Shown piece by piece: positions 1 to 6,817 of a stretch of DNA of 6,817 bases (its first letter is position 1; every line of letters starts with the position of its first letter). The notes beneath the pieces were generated by a model. It saw nothing but the letters and a program-made list of their open reading frames with translations. It made no database searches and was not told the DNA's origin. The DNA is taken from the IMG/VR virus record IMGVR_UViG_3300009622_000013. The stretch is one strand, 5' to 3'. This DNA comes from a virus (taxonomy: Duplodnaviria > Heunggongvirae > Uroviricota > Caudoviricetes). The translations under genes were made by a program, and so were the position numbers.

Positions 1-197
1 TATTTGTAGTATCTCTTTTTGGAATATCTCAATTTTATGTGTCATTTTTCGGGGAAGGATATAGAGATTTAAGCAAGCATTTATTTGGAATGTATTTTTC
101 GTTCGACCTTTGCTTATACATAACAGTCGTTTTTTTAATTTATAAAATAATTCAAAGAAATCAAGACAATAGCGATGTAAAGCACTAAGTTTAAATT

Positions 198-217
198 GCG
201 CGCCAATCATGGCGCGC
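198..217 (-). terminator. Candidate stem-loop just 3' of the minus-strand ORF stop; weak intrinsic terminator
   Basis: Perfect 8-bp GC-rich stem GCGCGCCA (198-205) / TGGCGCGC (210-217) with loop ATCA. On the minus strand it is followed by AATTTAAACTT, only a moderate U-tract. It lies 5 nt beyond the stop at 223-225. Confidence 0.3.
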
Positions 218-222
218 ACAAG

Positions 223-504
223 CTATAATACCAACCTAATTTCTCCTCCTCTTAGAGTGACTATATCTCCTGATAGAATTGCGGTATTGACTATCAAATG
301 CCCTGATTCGTTGTTTATTGTAATATCTCCTCTATCTGCAGACGATAACTTAAATGCATCATTGCCCACAACAAACCCCCTCCAGAACCAAGTGCTGATA
401 TTATCATCAACAGTGATAGATACATATACTAACTGATTATCGTTATAAGTGATTCCTGTCTTATACTTAACATAAGGACTTCCACTTTGATTCTCGATAG
501 ACAC
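223..504 (-). CDS. C-terminal fragment of an unassigned protein, possibly tail-fibre-like; no convincing start, likely a remnant
   Basis: The 93-aa minus-strand ORF reads like a real beta-rich protein (..GITYNDNQLVYVSITVDDN..GDITINNESGHLIVNTAILSGDIVTLRGGEI), whereas the overlapping plus-strand ORF 209..436 is low-complexity. It begins with a non-ATG codon at the junction with the tfaS fragment and is followed by the hairpin at 198-217. Confidence 0.3.
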   Translation of the reverse strand: MSIENQSGSPYVKYKTGITYNDNQLVYVSITVDDNISTWFWRGFVVGNDAFKLSSADRGDITINNESGHLIVNTAILSGDIVTLRGGEIRLVL

Positions 505-528
505 ATAACATCCAGGGGTTATGTTTGT

Positions 529-831
529 ATGCGTCCCGCGACTATCGCCCCATTAACGCCATACGATAAATGGGATGGTGAGAAATGGGTGACGGATACC
601 GAGGCACAGCATAGCGTCGCAGTAGATGCAGCAGAAGCACAGCGCCAGTCGCTGATTGATACTGCAATGGCTTCCATTAGTCTGATTCAACTGAAATTAC
701 AGGCTGGGCGGAAGCTGATGCAGGCAGAGACCTCCCGACTTAACACTGTGCTGGATTACATTGACGCGGTGACGGCAACAGATACCAGCACCGCGCCGGA
801 TGTCATCTGGCCTGAACTGCCGGAGGAGTAG
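529..831 (+). pseudogene. tfaS: Tail fibre assembly protein, N-terminally truncated fragment
   Basis: The C-terminal portion (..EAQHSVAVDAAEAQRQSLIDTAMASISLIQ..LDYIDAVTATDTSTAPDVIWPELPEE) matches the conserved C-terminal domain pattern of phage Tfa proteins, and is paralogous to the C-terminus of the convergent yfdK product. First ATG is at 529; the track ORF from 487 starts at TTG. The ~80 N-terminal residues of a full Tfa are missing. Confidence 0.6.
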
Positions 832-1243
832 GCCATTCAATATCTGGCGCACTGGAAGTATCGACCAGCTCCAGTGCGTCCAGATAATCCAGCCACAAAT
901 TATATTGCGCCAGTTCCTCACCTTTCAGACGACCAATAGCCGCTTTACCAGCCCATTGTTTACTGTTCATATAATCGTTGGCCTGATTAATCAATTGCTG
1001 CTTTTTCAGTTCGGCTGCAGCAATCTGTTCCTCATGTGTTGGTGGTGGAATTTCAGACCATGCAGGAAAACCATTTTCTCCAGCGATACGGATTTTTCCT
1101 TTCGGCGGTAATCCGGAAAACTCAATATACACTTGCTCATCAACTTCAACAGCATCATCTGGCCATGAGCCAGCTTGCGTGTAATCCTCTTTCATCTCCA
1201 AGGGATAGAAAGAGTTTGTAGTCGCGGAATATATGTAATTCAT
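803..1243 (-). CDS. yfdK: Phage tail fibre assembly protein (Tfa family), 146 aa
   Basis: ATG at 1241-1243 is preceded by GGAGTG on the minus strand. The protein ends ..LWLDYLDALELVDTSSAPDIEWPTPPAVQAR, the Tfa C-terminal signature. It sits immediately downstream of the tail-fibre fragment, the usual stf-tfa order. Length and sequence agree with my recollection of K-12 YfdK. Confidence 0.8.
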   Translation of the reverse strand: MNYIYSATTNSFYPLEMKEDYTQAGSWPDDAVEVDEQVYIEFSGLPPKGKIRIAGENGFPAWSEIPPPTHEEQIAAAELKKQQLINQANDYMNSKQWAGKAAIGRLKGEELAQYNLWLDYLDALELVDTSSAPDIEWPTPPAVQAR

Positions 1244-1269
1244 TTTTCACTCCATAAAGTTAAAAGAAA

Positions 1270-1992
1270 TTAACACCCTAATGCGAAAAATGAAGCACCG
1301 ATACCGGGTACGCCTGCTCTGGAAATAAATTTCACCGGGTCCTGGTTATAACCGGCACAAGCTATATAGCCAACATTTGCACTGCCGGGAGTGTAATCCT
1401 GAGTCGCAAATACCCGCAGACATCTATTCGGAAATGCAATCGGAAAATAGGTTACTGTGTCCTGAGACGTCAGCGGAACATCAATTGGCCCCCATTGAAT
1501 AATTAAACCGGATGGCAATTTTTGATATCCAGGAACTGAAGCAGAAAGCATAAAACTACCCATATCAGGTATCTGATTCGCCCCTGTCCCTACATTTCTT
1601 TTAGCCGCTTCTCCCAAACCAAGGTTTTCGAGAGCCTTTTGCACCGTGCCGTCCAATTTGATATCGCCAAACGGATTCTTGCGGCTTAACAGCAGCGCAC
1701 GAAGCGCGGTAAGCAGCTGGTCATGCCGCCCCTTCTCCAGGCTGGCACCGGAGGCCTCCACAACGCTGCAAAGCTCCTCCTGCAACATGTCAAAGTAGTC
1801 ATCATCCAGATCGGTGGCAGGCGTGCCGGTCTGGGGGTTACCACGGGTACGGGGGATTACCAAAGGCAGCACCTTTAAGCTCCGCAAGACGTTCTGACCA
1901 GTCATGCGCCAGCGCGTTGTCTTCCGCAGTGTAATACGCGGCACATTTGGCGTTATCACCATCAGTAAACAGATCCAGAACAAACGGGCCAA
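1270..1992 (-). pseudogene. yfdL: Tail fibre protein C-terminal fragment; the real coding part is probably about 1270-1840, with the upstream ORF portion overlapping yfdM out of frame
   Basis: The 240-aa ORF has a C-terminal ~190 aa that is tail-fibre-like (..[64 protein letters not shown]..). Its N-terminal ~50 codons lie over the yfdM 3' end in another frame and look non-native. It is followed 27 nt later by the tfa gene yfdK. Confidence 0.55.
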
Positions 1993-2113
1993 ACAGGGTG
2001 TTAATTCCCCAGAAAATGTTGTCCGGCGTGCGCCACTGATCGCCCACTTCCTTCAGTTCATGGGCTGGTTTGTTCCGCAGCTCCACCAGCGCCTGGCAAT
2101 ATTTATTACTCAT
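1838..2113 (-). CDS. yfdM: Truncated phage Dam-family DNA N6-adenine methyltransferase, N-terminal fragment ending just after the NPPY motif
   Basis: The product [91 protein letters not shown] carries the W-R-T-P .. NPPY pattern of phage Dam methylases but stops 2 residues after NPPY. The ATG at 2111-2113 overlaps the yfdN stop (TAATG). The track ORF starts 11 codons upstream at a non-ATG codon. Confidence 0.6.
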
Positions 2114-2607
2114 TAAGCCCCCACGTAATTCCCTGAGAGATACCACTCTTCACCTGATGCAGCCCGCTTACTGCTTTTCCGTAAACACCGTTCACGACGC
2201 GCCAGAAAATTGTTTCGTTCTGGCTGGGAGTGGCTTTCACGGAATGCCGCCATCCACACCGTTGCAGCACGACGGTATAAGCCCCTGGACTCCAGTTCTT
2301 CCGCCTGGCGGGTCAGGCACAAAATCACCCGCGGGTCGTTAGTGCCGACATAGAAATTGCGCACAGGTCTGGTTTCACGAACTGGTTGTGGTTCCGGATC
2401 CTGCGCTCTCTCAGTCAGGCGCGGGAAATGTCTGTGTGTATCTCCTTCACAACGGTGAGCCACACGCCCACTCTGACGTAACTTGCTTGCTGACTGCAGA
2501 ACGCGCTGCCGTGAGTAACCTGCAAAAGCATCCGCAATGTCTCCGGAAGTACAGCCCGGATGGGCTTCAATGAATTTCTGAACGTCATTCAAAAGACTCA
2601 TGCTCAC
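2113..2607 (-). CDS. yfdN: Prophage regulatory protein, PerC-like C-terminal region (recollection)
   Basis: A 164-aa ORF starting at GTG 2605-2607, which overlaps the yfdO stop as GTGA; an in-frame ATG lies 2 codons downstream. The C-terminal region (LCLTRQAEELESRGLYRRAATVWMAAFRESHSQPERNNFLARRERCLRKSS) resembles PerC-type activators. It is arranged like an operon with yfdO and yfdM. Confidence 0.7.
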   Translation of the reverse strand: MSMSLLNDVQKFIEAHPGCTSGDIADAFAGYSRQRVLQSASKLRQSGRVAHRCEGDTHRHFPRLTERAQDPEPQPVRETRPVRNFYVGTNDPRVILCLTRQAEELESRGLYRRAATVWMAAFRESHSQPERNNFLARRERCLRKSSKRAASGEEWYLSGNYVGA

Positions 2608-2972
2608 CCCCTGAATCCTGCCGGGATCTGGCTGTAGTCCACATTGTCGTAACTGGCTTTGAAGTACGGGTCTTCGCGTTTTTCTGTGTACGTGCTGACG
2701 GACGGCGATAAGCGCAGGGAAAGCTCATCCCATTTTTCCCGCAGCTTCGACGGGCTGAGCACGTTACGGCACCAGAACGGATCGCGGCTGACGCGGCTGT
2801 ACATCTCGCAGATTTGTTTGTGAGTACGACCATCCTGCACACACATCAGGCGAATTTCGTTTGCCCAGGCTGTCCAGTTCGGTTCTTTGGGACGAACCAC
2901 CTCGCCGTCACATTCGGCGGCCTGCTCGTACAGGGCGATGATTTTTTTCCAGAGCCACTGTGCGCAGGTCAA
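2604..2972 (-). CDS. yfdO: Phage replication protein O-like remnant, 122 aa (defective replication initiator)
   Basis: The 122-aa ORF MTCAQWLWKKIIALYEQAAECDGEVVRPKEPNWTAWANEIRLMCVQDGRTHKQICEMY.. matches my recollection of K-12 YfdO, annotated as a defective O-like protein. The iteron array lies directly upstream. Confidence 0.65.
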   Translation of the reverse strand: MTCAQWLWKKIIALYEQAAECDGEVVRPKEPNWTAWANEIRLMCVQDGRTHKQICEMYSRVSRDPFWCRNVLSPSKLREKWDELSLRLSPSVSTYTEKREDPYFKASYDNVDYSQIPAGFRG

Positions 2973-3329
2973 ATCATCCTGCGTTCCCCACTGGCGCTTT
3001 TTAGGGCTGAATACAACCGCATCAGGATGGCGAGTTAAAAAATCCTGTTCATCCGTCTGCGTGTCCGGTTGCGAAGCGTCCGGACGAGAAGGTTTTTTAT
3101 CTGACGGATCATGTTTTGATTTTACTGACGGATCCCCGCCAGATTCTGACGGGTGAAAACCCGATTTTTTGCCAGATTTCGACGCATCAAATTTTGACGG
3201 GTCAGATTTTGATGCGTCAGATTTTGACGGGTCAGAGTCTGACAGTTGAGAAAATGCCGCTGCCTGAAGCTTCGCAACGTTAAGCTGATAAACATTCGAC
3301 GCATTGCGGTTATGATGAGGAGCAGCAAA
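2973..3329. promoter_or_regulatory. Divergent intergenic control region between yfdO (minus) and yfdP (plus); contains the iteron array and presumably divergent promoters
   Basis: A 357-bp non-coding gap between divergently oriented genes. GAGGAG sits 8 nt before the yfdP ATG at 3330. Exact -35/-10 elements could not be assigned with confidence by eye. Confidence 0.4.
3171..3245. repeat. Five tandem 15-bp iterons (consensus GTCAGATTTTGAYGS) with degenerate copies upstream from about 3100; putative ori or operator repeats
   Basis: Units read directly in register: 3171 GCCAGATTTCGACGC, 3186 ATCAAATTTTGACGG, 3201 GTCAGATTTTGATGC, 3216 GTCAGATTTTGACGG, 3231 GTCAGAGTCTGACAG. The last has internal dyad symmetry (GTCAGA-G-TCTGAC). 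Further TGACGG-containing copies occur at 3102, 3126 and 3147. Confidence 0.6.
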
Positions 3330-3692
3330 ATGGCTAGCGAACGCAGTACTGATGTGCAGGCATTTATCGGGGAGCTGGACGGCGGCGTATTTGAAACCAA
3401 AATCGGCGCAGTTCTCAGTGAAGTCGCTTCCGGTGTGATGAACACGAAAACCAAAGGTAAGGTCTCACTCAACCTGGAAATCGAACCATTTGATGAGAAC
3501 CGTCTGAAAATCAAACACAAACTCTCATATGTTCGCCCGACTAACCGTGGGAAAATTTCCGAAGAAGACACCACCGAAACGCCGATGTATGTCAATCGCG
3601 GTGGTCGCCTGACTATTCTGCAGGAAGACCAGGGACAATTACTGACTCTTGCCGGTGAGCCTGACGGAAAACTCCGCGCAGCAGGTCATTAA
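3330..3692 (+). CDS. yfdP: Prophage protein of unknown function, 120 aa
   Basis: ATG at 3330 is preceded by GAGGAG. The product MASERSTDVQAFIGELDGGVFETKIGAVLSEV.. is protein-like. The track ORF from 3246 adds 28 low-complexity residues upstream with no ribosome binding site. Sequence matches my recollection of K-12 YfdP. Confidence 0.7.
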   Translation: MASERSTDVQAFIGELDGGVFETKIGAVLSEVASGVMNTKTKGKVSLNLEIEPFDENRLKIKHKLSYVRPTNRGKISEEDTTETPMYVNRGGRLTILQEDQGQLLTLAGEPDGKLRAAGH

Positions 3693-3757
3693 TATCATTC
3701 TTAATTAACTAATTATTTATCTCATCACTGAATATCTTAATATAGTGAGGACTTATT

Positions 3758-4582
3758 ATGTCTCAGAACTTAGACGCAACCGCAATTAATCAAATCCATG
3801 CCCTTATTTCTGCTCAGGGTGTTAATGAAATTATCAGTAAGATTGGTGCCGATGCTGTGGCATTGCCTGAGAATTTCCGCATTCATGATCTGGAAAAATT
3901 TAATTTAAATCGCTTCCGTTTCCGTGGTGCGCTTTCCACTGCCAGCATCGATGACTTTACCCGTTATTCTAAAGATCTTGCAGATGAAGGCACCCGCTGC
4001 TTTATCGATGCTGATAATATGCGTGCCGTCAGTGTGCTTAACCTGGGTACTATTGATGAACCAGGTCACGCAGATAACACCGCCACTCTCAAACTGAAAA
4101 AGACAGCACCGTTCTCTGCCCTGTTGTCTGTTAACGGCGAGCGTAACTCCCAGAAATCACTGGCAGAATGGATTGAAGACTGGGCCGACTACCTTGTGGG
4201 CTTTGATGCTAATGGTGACGCCATTCAGGCAACAAAAGCGGCTGCGGCAATCCGTAAAATCACGATTGAAGCAAACCAGACCGCTGATTTTGAAGATAAT
4301 GACTTCAGCGGCAAACGCTCCCTGATGGAATCTGTCGAAGCGAAGACCAAAGACATTATGCCAGTGGCATTTGAATTTAAATGCGTTCCGTTTGAAGGTC
4401 TGAAAGAACGTCCGTTTAAATTACGCCTCAGCATTATCACTGGCGATCGTCCTGTACTGGTTCTGCGCATTATTCAGCTGGAAGCGGTGCAGGAAGATAT
4501 GGCTAACGAATTTCGTGATCTGCTTGTTGAGAAATTCAAAGACAGCAAAGTAGAAACCTTTATTGGTACTTTCACCGCCTGA
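3758..4582 (+). CDS. yfdQ: Prophage protein YfdQ, 274 aa, uncharacterised (DUF-type)
   Basis: A 274-aa ORF with ATG at 3758 preceded by GTGAGGA. The product [53 protein letters not shown].. is recognised from memory as K-12 YfdQ. It is followed by a strong hairpin. Confidence 0.85.
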
Positions 4583-4594
4583 TTTCATTACTGC

Positions 4595-4620
4595 AAATGC
4601 CCCTGCGGGGGCATTTATGG
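4595..4620 (+). terminator. Candidate intrinsic terminator or attenuator downstream of yfdQ
   Basis: Perfect 9-bp stem AAATGCCCC (4595-4603) / GGGGCATTT (4608-4616) with loop TGCG, followed by ATGG. The 3' arm ends in UUU. It may act in both directions. Confidence 0.45.
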
Positions 4621-4709
4621 AAACGTAATTAACTCAATAATCACCGGATGGTGAGGGCTTCCTTTTACCCAAACTCAGCGCGGTGCAGCGCATATACGTG
4701 GAGAACAAA

Positions 4710-5246
4710 ATGTCATTTATTAAAACTTTTTCCGGGAAGCATTTTTATTATGACAAGATAAATAAAGACGACATCGTGATTAACGATATCGCGGTTTCCC
4801 TTTCAAATATCTGCCGCTTTGCCGGTCATCTTTCTCACTTCTACAGTGTCGCCCAACATGCGGTGCTTTGCAGCCAGCTGGTGCCGCAGGAATTTGCTTT
4901 TGAAGCATTAATGCATGATGCAACAGAAGCGTATTGCCAGGACATCCCCGCACCACTGAAACGCCTTCTTCCTGACTATAAACGGATGGAAGAAAAAATA
5001 GATGCAGTAATCCGTGAGAAATACGGGTTACCTCCTGTTATGAGCACGCCAGTGAAATATGCCGATCTCATTATGCTGGCAACCGAACGCCGTGATCTCG
5101 GGCTTGATGATGGCTCTTTCTGGCCTGTACTGGAAGGCATCCCGGCAACAGAGATGTTCAACGTGATTCCACTGGCACCGGGTCATGCCTACGGGATGTT
5201 TATGGAACGTTTTAACGATTTATCGGAGTTACGCAAATGCGCATGA
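4710..5246 (+). CDS. yfdR: HD-domain phosphohydrolase (5'-deoxynucleotidase family), 178 aa
   Basis: ATG at 4710 (MSFIKTF..) is preceded by GGAGA; the track ORF from 4683 starts at a non-ATG codon without a ribosome binding site. The HD-domain signature is present: H40, H43, then H69-D70 (codons 4914-4919, LMHDATEAY). The stop overlaps the yfdS start region. Confidence 0.8.
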   Translation: MSFIKTFSGKHFYYDKINKDDIVINDIAVSLSNICRFAGHLSHFYSVAQHAVLCSQLVPQEFAFEALMHDATEAYCQDIPAPLKRLLPDYKRMEEKIDAVIREKYGLPPVMSTPVKYADLIMLATERRDLGLDDGSFWPVLEGIPATEMFNVIPLAPGHAYGMFMERFNDLSELRKCA

Positions 5247-5599
5247 ATGTTTTCGAAATGGAAGGGTTTCTTCGCGGGAAATGTGTACCGCGAGATCTGA
5301 AAGTGAACGAAACAAATGCTGAGTACCTGGTACGTAAATTCGACGCGCTTGAAGCTAAATGTGCGGCACTGGAAAACAAAATAATACCAGTGTCAGCTGA
5401 ACTGCCACCAGCAAATGAAAGTGTTCTGTTATTTGATGCTAACGGAGAAGGCTGGCTGATTGGCTGGCGTTCTCTCTGGTACACCTGGGGACAAAAAGAA
5501 ACCGGAGAATGGCAGTGGACATTTCAGGTTGGGGACCTTGAAAACGTCAATATCACTCACTGGGCAGTAATGCCAAAAGCACCGGAGGCTGGAGCATAA
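5237..5599 (+). CDS. yfdS: Prophage protein of unknown function, 120 aa
   Basis: ATG at 5237 is preceded by GGAG and overlaps the yfdR 3' end (ATGCGCATGA); its TAA stop overlaps the yfdT ATG (TAATG at 5597-5601). Sequence MRMNVFEMEGFLRGKCVPRDLK.. matches my recollection of K-12 YfdS. Confidence 0.75.
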   Translation: MRMNVFEMEGFLRGKCVPRDLKVNETNAEYLVRKFDALEAKCAALENKIIPVSAELPPANESVLLFDANGEGWLIGWRSLWYTWGQKETGEWQWTFQVGDLENVNITHWAVMPKAPEAGA

Positions 5600-5904
5600 T
5601 GACCACATTTACCAATAAAGAACTGATTAAAGAAATCAAAGAACGAATCAGCAGCCTAGAGGTTCGAGACGATATTGAGCGCCGTGCTTATGAAATCGCA
5701 CTCGTATCTCTGGAAGTAGAGCCAGATGAACGCGAAGCCTATGAATTATTCATGGAAAAGCGTTTCGGTGACTTAGTAGATCGTCGGAGAGCAAAAAACG
5801 GCGATAACGAATACATGGCATGGGATATGACTCTCGGTTGGATCATCTGGCAGCAACGAGCTGGTATCCATTTTTCAACAATGTCACAACAAGAGGTGAA
5901 ATAA
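5599..5904 (+). CDS. yfdT: Prophage protein of unknown function, 101 aa
   Basis: ATG at 5599 is translationally coupled to yfdS. The product MTTFTNKELIKEIKERISSLEVRDDIERRAYEIALVSLEVEPDEREAYELFMEKRF.. is charged and helical. It is the last gene of the yfdPQRST block. Confidence 0.75.
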   Translation: MTTFTNKELIKEIKERISSLEVRDDIERRAYEIALVSLEVEPDEREAYELFMEKRFGDLVDRRRAKNGDNEYMAWDMTLGWIIWQQRAGIHFSTMSQQEVK

Positions 5905-5916
5905 TAGAGCCATACA

Positions 5917-5945
5917 GCCTCACACTCGATGAGGCCTGTCAGTTT
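5917..5945 (+). terminator. Weak candidate terminator hairpin downstream of yfdT
   Basis: Stem GCCTCA (5917-5922) / TGAGGC (5930-5935) with loop CACTCGA, followed by CTGTCAGTTTCTT. Short stem and interrupted U-tract. Confidence 0.25.
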
Positions 5946-6000
5946 CTTAAAATATCCTGATCTACCATCGCCGTCATAGAGCGTATTTTTATTACCTGAT

Positions 6001-6016
6001 TTGCAGGTTCGATTCC
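6001..6016 (+). other. Orphan tRNA T-arm-like fragment (TTGCAGGTTCGATTCC), not part of an intact tRNA
   Basis: Contains the canonical tRNA T-loop motif GGTTCGATTCC preceded by GCAGG. The complementary 3' T-stem strand and the acceptor stem are absent, and no cloverleaf can be drawn. By recollection it matches the T-arm of tRNA-Arg argW. Confidence 0.45.
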
Positions 6017-6035
6017 CTATTCGGAGATAGCACTC

Positions 6036-6236
6036 ATGCAACACGAACTACAGCCTGATTCACTGGTTGATTTGAAATTCATCATGGCTGATACTGGCTT
6101 TGGTAAAACCTTCATCTATGACCGGATTAAGTCAGGCGACCTGCCAAAAGCCAAAGTTATCCACGGGCGAGCAAGATGGTTATATCGTGACCATTGTGAA
6201 TTCAAAAATAAGCTCTTAAGCCGCGCCAATGGGTAA
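6036..6236 (+). CDS. torI: Excisionase-like recombination directionality factor / Tor response-regulator inhibitor, 66 aa
   Basis: ATG at 6036 is preceded by GGAG. The product MQHELQPDSLVDLKFIMADTGFGKTFIYDRIKSGDLPKAKVIHGRARWLYRDHCEFKNKLLSRANG is recognised from memory as TorI (AlpA/Xis-like winged helix). It lies next to the att core, as expected for a recombination directionality factor. Confidence 0.85.
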   Translation: MQHELQPDSLVDLKFIMADTGFGKTFIYDRIKSGDLPKAKVIHGRARWLYRDHCEFKNKLLSRANG

Positions 6237-6309
6237 AATAGCGGGTAAAATATTTCTCACATCTAAAAAACACCATTCCAATCAATCCCCTGCTGCTTCA
6301 AGTAGATGT

Positions 6310-6324
6310 CTGCAGGGGACACCA
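6310..6324 (+). other. Putative attR core: 15-nt copy of a tRNA 3' end (CTGCAGGGGACACCA) marking the prophage/host boundary
   Basis: The sequence ends in the acceptor-stem/ACCA-type terminus of a tRNA and by recollection equals the 3' end of argW tRNA-Arg. No upstream tRNA body is present, so it is a partial duplicate as expected at the att site distal to the integrase. It is flanked by torI (prophage) and dsdC (host). Confidence 0.6.
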
Positions 6325-6419
6325 TCCTTGTGTTTATCCCTAAAACCACATAAAAACCGTAAATTAAATTCGAACTAGCAGGCCGAATAAGGCACACCAG
6401 GAACTCGTGGTTTTATTCA

Positions 6420-6755
6420 TTATGAAGTGGTTTTTACCTGTTCTCTTAGCCAGATAATAAACGCTTCAATTTTTGGCCACTGCCTGCCCGGTAATGTGGT
6501 GATGTAATAATGCTGATGGCATTTCACCGTCATATCGCCAAACGGCGCGACGAGCTCACCACTGGCAAGCCTTTTTTGTACCAGGCGTTTTCTTCCCATC
6601 GCCACCCCAATATGATTCATCGCGGCAATAACAGCTAAATCAGAACGATCAAAGCCAATTCCAGAAGATGTCGGCAAATTAACCGCATAATGTTGCGCCC
6701 AACTATGCCATTCATCCGTACCGGAGTCGTTGCTCCATGCCTGTCTGTCATGGAG
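6420..6755 (-). CDS. dsdC: LysR-family transcriptional regulator, C-terminal part only (D-serine deaminase activator); upstream part replaced by a fold-back palindrome
   Basis: The minus-strand ORF ends ..HDRQAWSNDSGTDEWHSWAQHYAVNLPTSSGIGFDRSDLAVIAAMNHIGVAMGRKRLVQKRLASGELVAPFGDMTVKCHQHYYITTLPGRQWPKIEAFIIWLREQVKTTS, a LysR effector-domain C-terminus recognised as DsdC. The first 17 residues of the track ORF (MPFIRTGVVAPCLSVME) are encoded by the reverse-complement arm of the palindrome and are not native. Confidence 0.7.
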   Translation of the reverse strand, partial: LHDRQAWSNDSGTDEWHSWAQHYAVNLPTSSGIGFDRSDLAVIAAMNHIGVAMGRKRLVQKRLASGELVAPFGDMTVKCHQHYYITTLPGRQWPKIEAFIIWLREQVKTTS

Positions 6756-6817
6756 CTCCATGACAGACAGGCATGGAGCAACGACTCCGGTACGGATGAA
6801 TGGCATAGTTGGGCGCA
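6694..6817. repeat. Perfect 124-bp palindrome (62-bp arms, no spacer, centre between 6755 and 6756) running to the window end
   Basis: Bases 6756-6817 are the exact reverse complement of 6694-6755, checked block by block. The centre is GGAGCTCC. Confidence 0.95.

Follow-up and report, generated by a model that had tools for sequence, protein, structure and literature searches.

An inverted repeat at the attR site of prophage KplE1 and a possible tRNA-like hairpin on the torI-sense strand

At the right-hand end of the cryptic prophage KplE1 of Escherichia coli K-12, an 8-nt inverted repeat joins phage DNA to the tRNA-derived core at which the prophage recombines. The question raised by this arrangement is what keeps the two arms complementary. 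A sequence-only reading had proposed that they could be core-type binding sites of the integrase around the crossover. In the stretch of DNA analysed here (the window, 6,817 nt), the left arm TCCCCTGC (6286-6293, + strand) and the right arm GCAGGGGA (6312-6319, + strand) are indeed perfect complements with 18 nt between them, as that reading had placed them. Our analysis points instead to a hairpin, similar to the acceptor stem of a tRNA, that would be kept by selection on the torI-sense strand, rather than to the C/B' pair; we hold this reading with moderate confidence and put its probability at about 0.5.

The attR junction of KplE1

Positions 1-6756 of the window are 100% identical to E. 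coli K-12 and, by the RefSeq annotation of the identical stretch, include the right half of KplE1/CPS-53, running from yfdK through yfdT to torI. The last KplE1 gene, torI (6036-6236, + strand; a 66-aa ORF), encodes the RDF (excisionase) and is followed by the P arm, the 16-nt core and the 3' part of the host gene dsdC (6420-6755, - strand; annotated, and identical to K-12 up to 6756), with 183 nt between torI and dsdC. The opposite end of the prophage lies ~10 kb upstream in the K-12 record, where tRNA-Arg (argW) is followed by intS. K-12 identity, the published core and the torI/dsdC neighbours identify the locus as attR, the right-hand junction of the defective prophage KplE1 (CPS-53), so that the boundary and the flanking genes named in the sequence-only reading both agree with the annotation. 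This site, the product of IntS-mediated integration into the 3' end of argW, is already known and experimentally well characterised, and its confirmation in itself changes nothing.

KplE1 is bordered by a duplicated 16-nt core, CTGCAGGGGACACCAT (PMC2951348), which occupies 6310-6325 (+ strand) in the window, is the 3' end of argW and contains the whole right arm, as had been claimed. The same 16 nt occur at attL (L001 2196-2211), inside tRNA-Arg and ending argW, which answers the earlier concern that attL might not share the core. Among 54 distinct E. coli attR copies the last core base (T6325) is T in 25 and G in 28; the obligatory identity between phage and host is therefore 15 nt, ending CCA, and the 15-nt core proposed from the sequence, without the final T, was a reasonable choice. 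On the right flank, one phage type adjoins several different host sequences. The direct repeat ACACCAT (6270-6276 in the P arm and 6319-6325 at the core end) is probably due to chance, because it is limited to E. coli-type sequences.

The primers attR-IHF2 and attR-XbaI (PMC3509656) map to 6213-6232 and 6323-6347, respectively, and delimit a 135-bp attR substrate (6213-6347) that is sufficient for excision in vitro; the inverted repeat therefore sits within a recombination-competent attR. As printed in the Methods of that paper, attR-XbaI (...GGGATAAACACACAAGGATG) carries two bases more than the genome (...GGGATAAACACAAGGATG, 6323-6347), probably a typographical slip, and the genomic version yields a 135-bp product that matches the stated size. 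Excision of KplE1 has been reported to form attP and attB, and the attP sites of HK620 and Sf6 equal a reconstruction from the left part of attR and the right part of attL. The positions of sites within attR are given in none of the other papers covered that mention KplE1, and this literature handles the 16-nt core as one unit.

Two features of the window lie apart from this site. The final 62 bases (6756-6817) are the exact reverse complement of 6694-6755, and the K-12 sequence beyond 6756 (GAGCAACGTACAG...) differs from the window; this end is a fold-back artefact, not biology, and cuts dsdC off early. The gene yodE, which encodes a small toxic protein within the RyeG RNA (PMC7498339), is annotated at 223-369 (- strand) in the K-12 record and bears no relation to the attR dyad.

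The exchange region and candidate core-type half-sites

The core sites of tyrosine recombinases flank an overlap of 6-8 bp, and a comparison of junctions confines this overlap from both sides. On the left, attR and attL of K-12 differ at 6308-6309 (GT versus TC) and are identical from 6310. At 6310 itself, most relatives have A versus C in argW of E. coli, which is the reference here and not the relatives' own tRNA genes, and prophage attR copies retain the phage bases left of the exchange region, including the phage base at 6310. On the right, several prophages depart from the canonical sequence at their junctions, after 6318 in L020 and after 6321-6322 in L010, L012, L231, L242 and L261, a limit that presumes a canonical attP in those prophages; in Klebsiella attP only TGCAGGGGACAC is common with the tRNA. 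Taken together, the two limits argue well for strand exchange within ~6311-6318, TGCAGGG(G), which is essentially the right arm itself.

This placement leaves little room for the idea that the arms flank the crossover. They lie 18 nt apart, a spacing unfit for an overlap of 6-8 bp, and the right arm coincides with the probable exchange segment. An inner dyad, formed by GATGT (6305-6309) and ACACC (6319-6323) with 9 nt between, has the geometry that fits a 7-bp overlap TGCAGGG, and co-variation is seen at its central position (T/A in 31 sequences, C/G in 8, mismatched in 9). In relatives, the left half of this inner dyad reads TTCGATGT, which resembles the T-loop half-site TTCGATTC of attB. From the conserved T.G.TGT and this resemblance, TAGATGTC (6303-6310, + strand) is a candidate for the phage core-type half-site C, and from the co-varying inner dyad, GACACCAT (6318-6325, + strand) is a candidate for the host-side half-site B' (C' in attP). 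The right arm is essentially the probable exchange segment and the left arm is phage P-arm DNA in an IHF-like site, and the arms are therefore unlikely to be the C/B' pair, for which the inner dyad GATGT-N9-ACACC is well supported as the more likely candidate. Thus, the junction comparison narrows the exchange region of KplE1 to ~8 bp and proposes positions for C and B'.

Might both arms bind IntS all the same, the left one as C or as an extra core-type site in the P arm? The same sequence is present in inverted orientation, as would be needed if a single protein domain were to bind at both places, core changes have their counterparts in the left arm, and in the Pantoea clade a phage-side ATGGCG copies the outer part of the C'/B' half-site. 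Besides the spacing and the position of the right arm, this explanation is opposed by the flank of the left arm, CAATCAA, which has no likeness to the G-R-T-K-Y element common to C, B and C'/B', by the IHF-like site that takes up the position of the left arm, and by relatives that lack the left arm and recombine into the same kind of core. We consider it very unlikely. Of the sequence-only reading, then, the attR boundary, the core shared with attL and a real, conserved repeat have stood, and the assignment of the arms as IntS core-type sites flanking the crossover has not.

Conservation and co-variation of the inverted repeat

Related att sites were collected from four sources: annotated phages (HK620, Sf6, Kapi1, two Klebsiella phages and two Erwinia phages), genomes with a TorI homologue (Serratia, Citrobacter, Dryocola, Pantoea, Tatumella, Rouxiella and Edwardsiella), and viral contigs and metagenome contigs, both searched by DNA pattern. 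A TorI-profile scan of the viral contigs returned only 100%-identical E. coli copies, and the diverged relatives were reached by the DNA patterns. The collection comprises 97 distinct sequences, from the arm repeats to the core, of which 48 diverse ones were aligned (A3); these come from Klebsiella, Erwinia, Serratia, Edwardsiella, Rouxiella and metagenomes.

At the torI side of the P arm, two direct repeats GGGTAAAATA (6231-6240 and 6243-6252, + strand; direct-repeat family D7) are the probable arm-type sites P1 and P2 of IntS. Both contain TAAA, the motif by which the mapped P' sites are defined (PMC2951348), and both are invariant in 48/48 relatives. Exactly 61 nt separate the second repeat, GGGTAAAA, from the core in 95 of the 97 distinct sequences despite a divergence of at least 25%, a constancy that implies a rigid intasome geometry. 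Between the repeats and the core lies an IHF-like site (6265-6292, + strand), assigned by its match to the consensus. It consists of an A6 tract (6265-6270) and, with this tract 10 nt upstream, AATCAATCCCCTG (6280-6292), which agrees with the IHF consensus WATCAANNNNTTR at 12 of 13 positions; matches with one mismatch occur at the chance rate, 8 in the window versus 8.5 in shuffles. No position of the P arm is better conserved than CA and TG, and this holds for every clade, even where the repeat is absent and a canonical TTG stands in place of CTG. These data give good reason to place the left arm in a candidate IHF site, and the overlap could account for part of the conservation of the left arm.

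The complementarity itself has a distinct pattern of conservation. When the 60 nt upstream of the core were shuffled, an 8-nt repeat to the core arose by chance in 0.18% of 200,000 trials; across the whole window, 13 overlapping 8-mer repeat hits (spacer 3-30 nt) were found versus 3.4 ± 2.3 in Markov shuffles. The attP sites of HK620 and Sf6 are identical to KplE1 through both arms. The left arm repeats the crossover segment in inverted form on the phage side, and its CCCCTGC is invariant across HK620, Sf6 and the Klebsiella and Erwinia phages at an overall identity of only 75-80%. The next 9 nt (6294-6302, + strand), which would form the 5' part of the loop, differ in every lineage and appear unconstrained; beyond them, conservation resumes with T.G.TGT and TGCAGGGGACAC. 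When E. coli copies are compared with one another, the non-coding P arm varies less than third codon positions in torI, with 6256, 6271 and 6294-6298 as exceptions; the last of these vary about as much as torI synonymous sites. The hexamer 6294-6299 had seemed hypervariable, suggesting a hypermutable loop; this idea was dropped, its entropy being that of torI synonymous sites and the hexamer merely unconstrained.

In the 53 sequences that are not of the E. coli type, the two arms in their register form 7.2 contiguous Watson-Crick pairs on average (range 2-13), versus a mean of 3.1 or less in every other register. The seven core pairs of the dyad are paired in 37-48 of 48 sequences, and stems of 6 to 13 bp occur, depending on the lineage. 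Compensatory changes are seen at two base pairs. In Rouxiella, the core GTAGGGG faces the left arm CCCCTAC (G-C to A-U), and in the Edwardsiella type, the core GCAGGGA faces TCCCTGC (C-G to U-A, shared by the Edwardsiella/L133 group); within that group the L133 type, with the core GTATGCAGGGAAC and the left arm GTTCCCTGCATAC, forms 13 perfect bp. The independent events number only two or three, and the uncompensated changes are mostly C to T, the commonest mutation anyway. The Pantoea clade lacks the left arm; there, another phage segment, ATGGYG, pairs with CRCCAT at the end of this tRNA fragment, with Y and R varying in concert. In L025, both helices are present and combine into a 20-bp hairpin of -30 kcal/mol. 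RNAalifold gave the same helix with a covariation term of only -0.13 kcal/mol, and structures slid by one column have similar covariation scores, the percentage of paired cells alone standing out for the register of the arms. Pairs between the variable spacer and GTAT, which would lengthen the stem inwards, formed at about the random rate (31-48% versus 37.5% expected) and are not general.

An obvious objection is that the repeat is incidental, the left arm being kept solely because it is half of the IHF site (the 3' one) or makes another P-arm contact, with the complementarity left to chance and shared ancestry. The close match of AATCAATCCCCTG to the consensus together with the upstream A6 tract, the conservation of CA and TG in clades without the repeat, the presence of IHF as a component of the in-vitro excision reaction reported in the literature and the weak covariation statistics all speak for this explanation. 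It does not account well for several other observations: CCC and the trailing C are near-invariant at NNNN positions that IHF does not read; in two cases where the host tRNA dictates a change in the core, the left arm has changed to the exact complement; chance complementarity over 8 nt has p ~0.002; a second clade has an independent complementary arrangement; and the one-mismatch IHF matches are no commoner than in shuffles. We regard it as unlikely, though deserving real weight, and the balance argues moderately for selection on the complementarity of the left arm to the tRNA-derived segment. A change of the left arm from TCCCCTGC to TGGCCTGA is an example of one that keeps CAA-N4-YTG.

A third copy of the repeat, TCCCCTGA, is found in the P' arm of attL (L001 2248-2255), 36 nt right of the core in attL/attP. 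Because only its CCC is conserved in the Klebsiella and Erwinia phages, this copy probably does not belong to the dyad.

A predicted hairpin on the torI-sense strand and its relation to known systems

The hairpin is the minimum-free-energy fold in ~44 of 48 sequences (mean z -3.9), and that of KplE1 has -17.7 kcal/mol and z -2.8. The hairpin is absent from two relatives, L234 and L266, and is only weak in most of the Pantoea clade. The preference for a strand is marginal (+ better in 29, - better in 18, p = 0.05). For KplE1, DNA parameters give -10.0 versus -8.3 kcal/mol on the two strands and RNA parameters -17.7 kcal/mol on both; neither the strand preference nor these folds separate a role in RNA from one in DNA.

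The dyad might act in double-stranded DNA, as a cruciform or other structure in supercoiled attP or attR that modulates IHF bending or the access of IntS to the crossover. Such a role would suit the similar pairing on both strands, the position of the dyad centre between the IHF-like site and the core, and the rigid spacing of the P arm. We think it rather improbable, since extrusion is hardly to be expected of an 8-bp stem with an 18-nt spacer, as in KplE1, since linear attR fragments of 135 bp are reported to recombine efficiently in vitro, up to ~80%, so that supercoil-driven extrusion is unneeded, and since relatives without the dyad exist.

We return to the hairpin on the torI-sense strand as the most likely reason why the phage-side arm would have been kept complementary to the tRNA-derived segment. 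The candidate molecule is an RNA read through from torI, which in the free phage would run from the RDF gene towards int. In such a read-through RNA, the orphan 3' segment of the tRNA would supply the 3' strand of a helix resembling an acceptor stem, with (C)ACCA after it, and the hairpin could serve as a processing or stability element of the RDF transcript. The hairpin would be dispensable for the chemistry of recombination, because some relatives lack it. That the selected object is this tRNA-minihelix-like hairpin in RNA, for processing or stability of the transcript, is a tentative proposal. If the dyad does act in RNA, it would add a new layer of control over excisionase expression and would also be a constraint to respect when att sites are re-engineered. 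More generally, the tracking of the host tRNA by a phage-side segment suggests a structured element, in addition to the protein-binding sites, in att sites located at the 3' ends of tRNAs.

Other explanations of the conserved region were tried and rejected. An ORF that crosses the core (6229-6378; hkaB in HK620) is open in KplE1; it is open in only ~28 of 48 relatives and interrupted in ~20, which argues against a coding constraint. No intrinsic terminator was predicted on either strand within 5900-6500; the tail after the stem is CACCATCCTTG, which has no terminator-like T run, and a U-rich tail occurs only in the Klebsiella phages. As for a tRNA or a known RNA family, ARAGORN returned 0 genes and an Rfam E-value search gave only chance hits.

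Phage RNAs can carry tRNA-like processing signals, as in the P4 CI RNA, which is matured by RNase P, and the P1 C4 RNA. The hairpin predicted here is like a tRNA acceptor/T-arm minihelix in that its + strand form uses the genuine 3' acceptor strand AGGGGA followed by (C)ACCA, and in relatives its loop contains a T-loop-like TTCGAT; it differs in the negative ARAGORN and Rfam results and in the absence of CCA from the Klebsiella phages. A far-reaching form of the idea is that attP/attR of the HK620/Sf6/KplE1 group carries a mimic of a tRNA minihelix, with a surrogate 5' strand from the phage and a captured acceptor 3' strand, co-evolving with the host tRNA. With its NCCA tail and the motif identical to the T arm upstream of the RDF gene, it would be read by RNase P or 3' trimming nucleases and would set the fate of the RDF transcript, uncoupled from int. 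This form is speculative and, in our judgement, improbable.

In lambda sib retroregulation, a hairpin beside att lies on a recombination-gene transcript, and integration changes what follows it. The hairpin of the KplE1 type is likewise beside att on the transcript of a recombination gene. It differs in that no part of the hairpin is separated from the RDF gene, whether the phage is free or integrated, and in that it has no long duplex of the RNase III type, L025 excepted. The att site of lambda is comparable in its heterobivalent integrase, its direct arm-type repeats and an inner imperfect dyad around a probable 7-bp overlap, and the IHF-like site, which has an A tract upstream and lies between the arm sites and the core, recalls lambda H'. 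Unlike lambda, the KplE1-type attP lies between the RDF and int genes and its core is the 3' end of a tRNA; to our knowledge, the P arm of lambda has no inverted copy of the overlap.

The recombination module shared by KplE1, HK620 and Sf6 (IntS, TorI and attL/attR at argW), reportedly described by Panis, Mejean and Ansaldi in 2007 and by Panis et al. in 2010, is the same system as the one analysed here, with the same site, core, neighbours and 135-bp attR and no difference. What the present analysis adds is the dyad linking the P arm to the overlap, together with its co-variation. The co-varying dyad, the narrowed exchange region and the T-arm-identical motif described below were not found in the literature covered, with the site-mapping papers Panis 2007 and Panis 2010 outside it; the co-varying dyad is thus a modest new detail at an already known site, for which we claim no priority.

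A further observation concerns the region upstream of torI, where TTGCAGGTTCGATTCC (6001-6016, 20-33 nt upstream of the torI start; core motif CAGGTTCGATTCC at 6004-6016) equals the T-arm sequence of argW and, in the tRNA, ends exactly at the start of the proposed overlap. Erwinia, Serratia, Citrobacter, Edwardsiella and many metagenomic relatives conserve the sequence CAGGTTCGATT(C/T)CC, located ~33 nt before the RDF gene in surroundings that have otherwise diverged, and the Erwinia phages carry two tandem copies. The search pattern NNNGGTTCGANNNN matched in 24 of 41 further loci, in addition to near variants. All five TorI sites of KplE1 are on attL, where GTTCG is the motif that was mutated to define them (PMC2951348), and the annotation of HK620 places a cII-dependent promoter in the region of the T-arm-identical motif. 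Because this motif contains GTTCG, it may be a TorI operator, a mimic of the attB half-site B or part of the promoter annotated in HK620.
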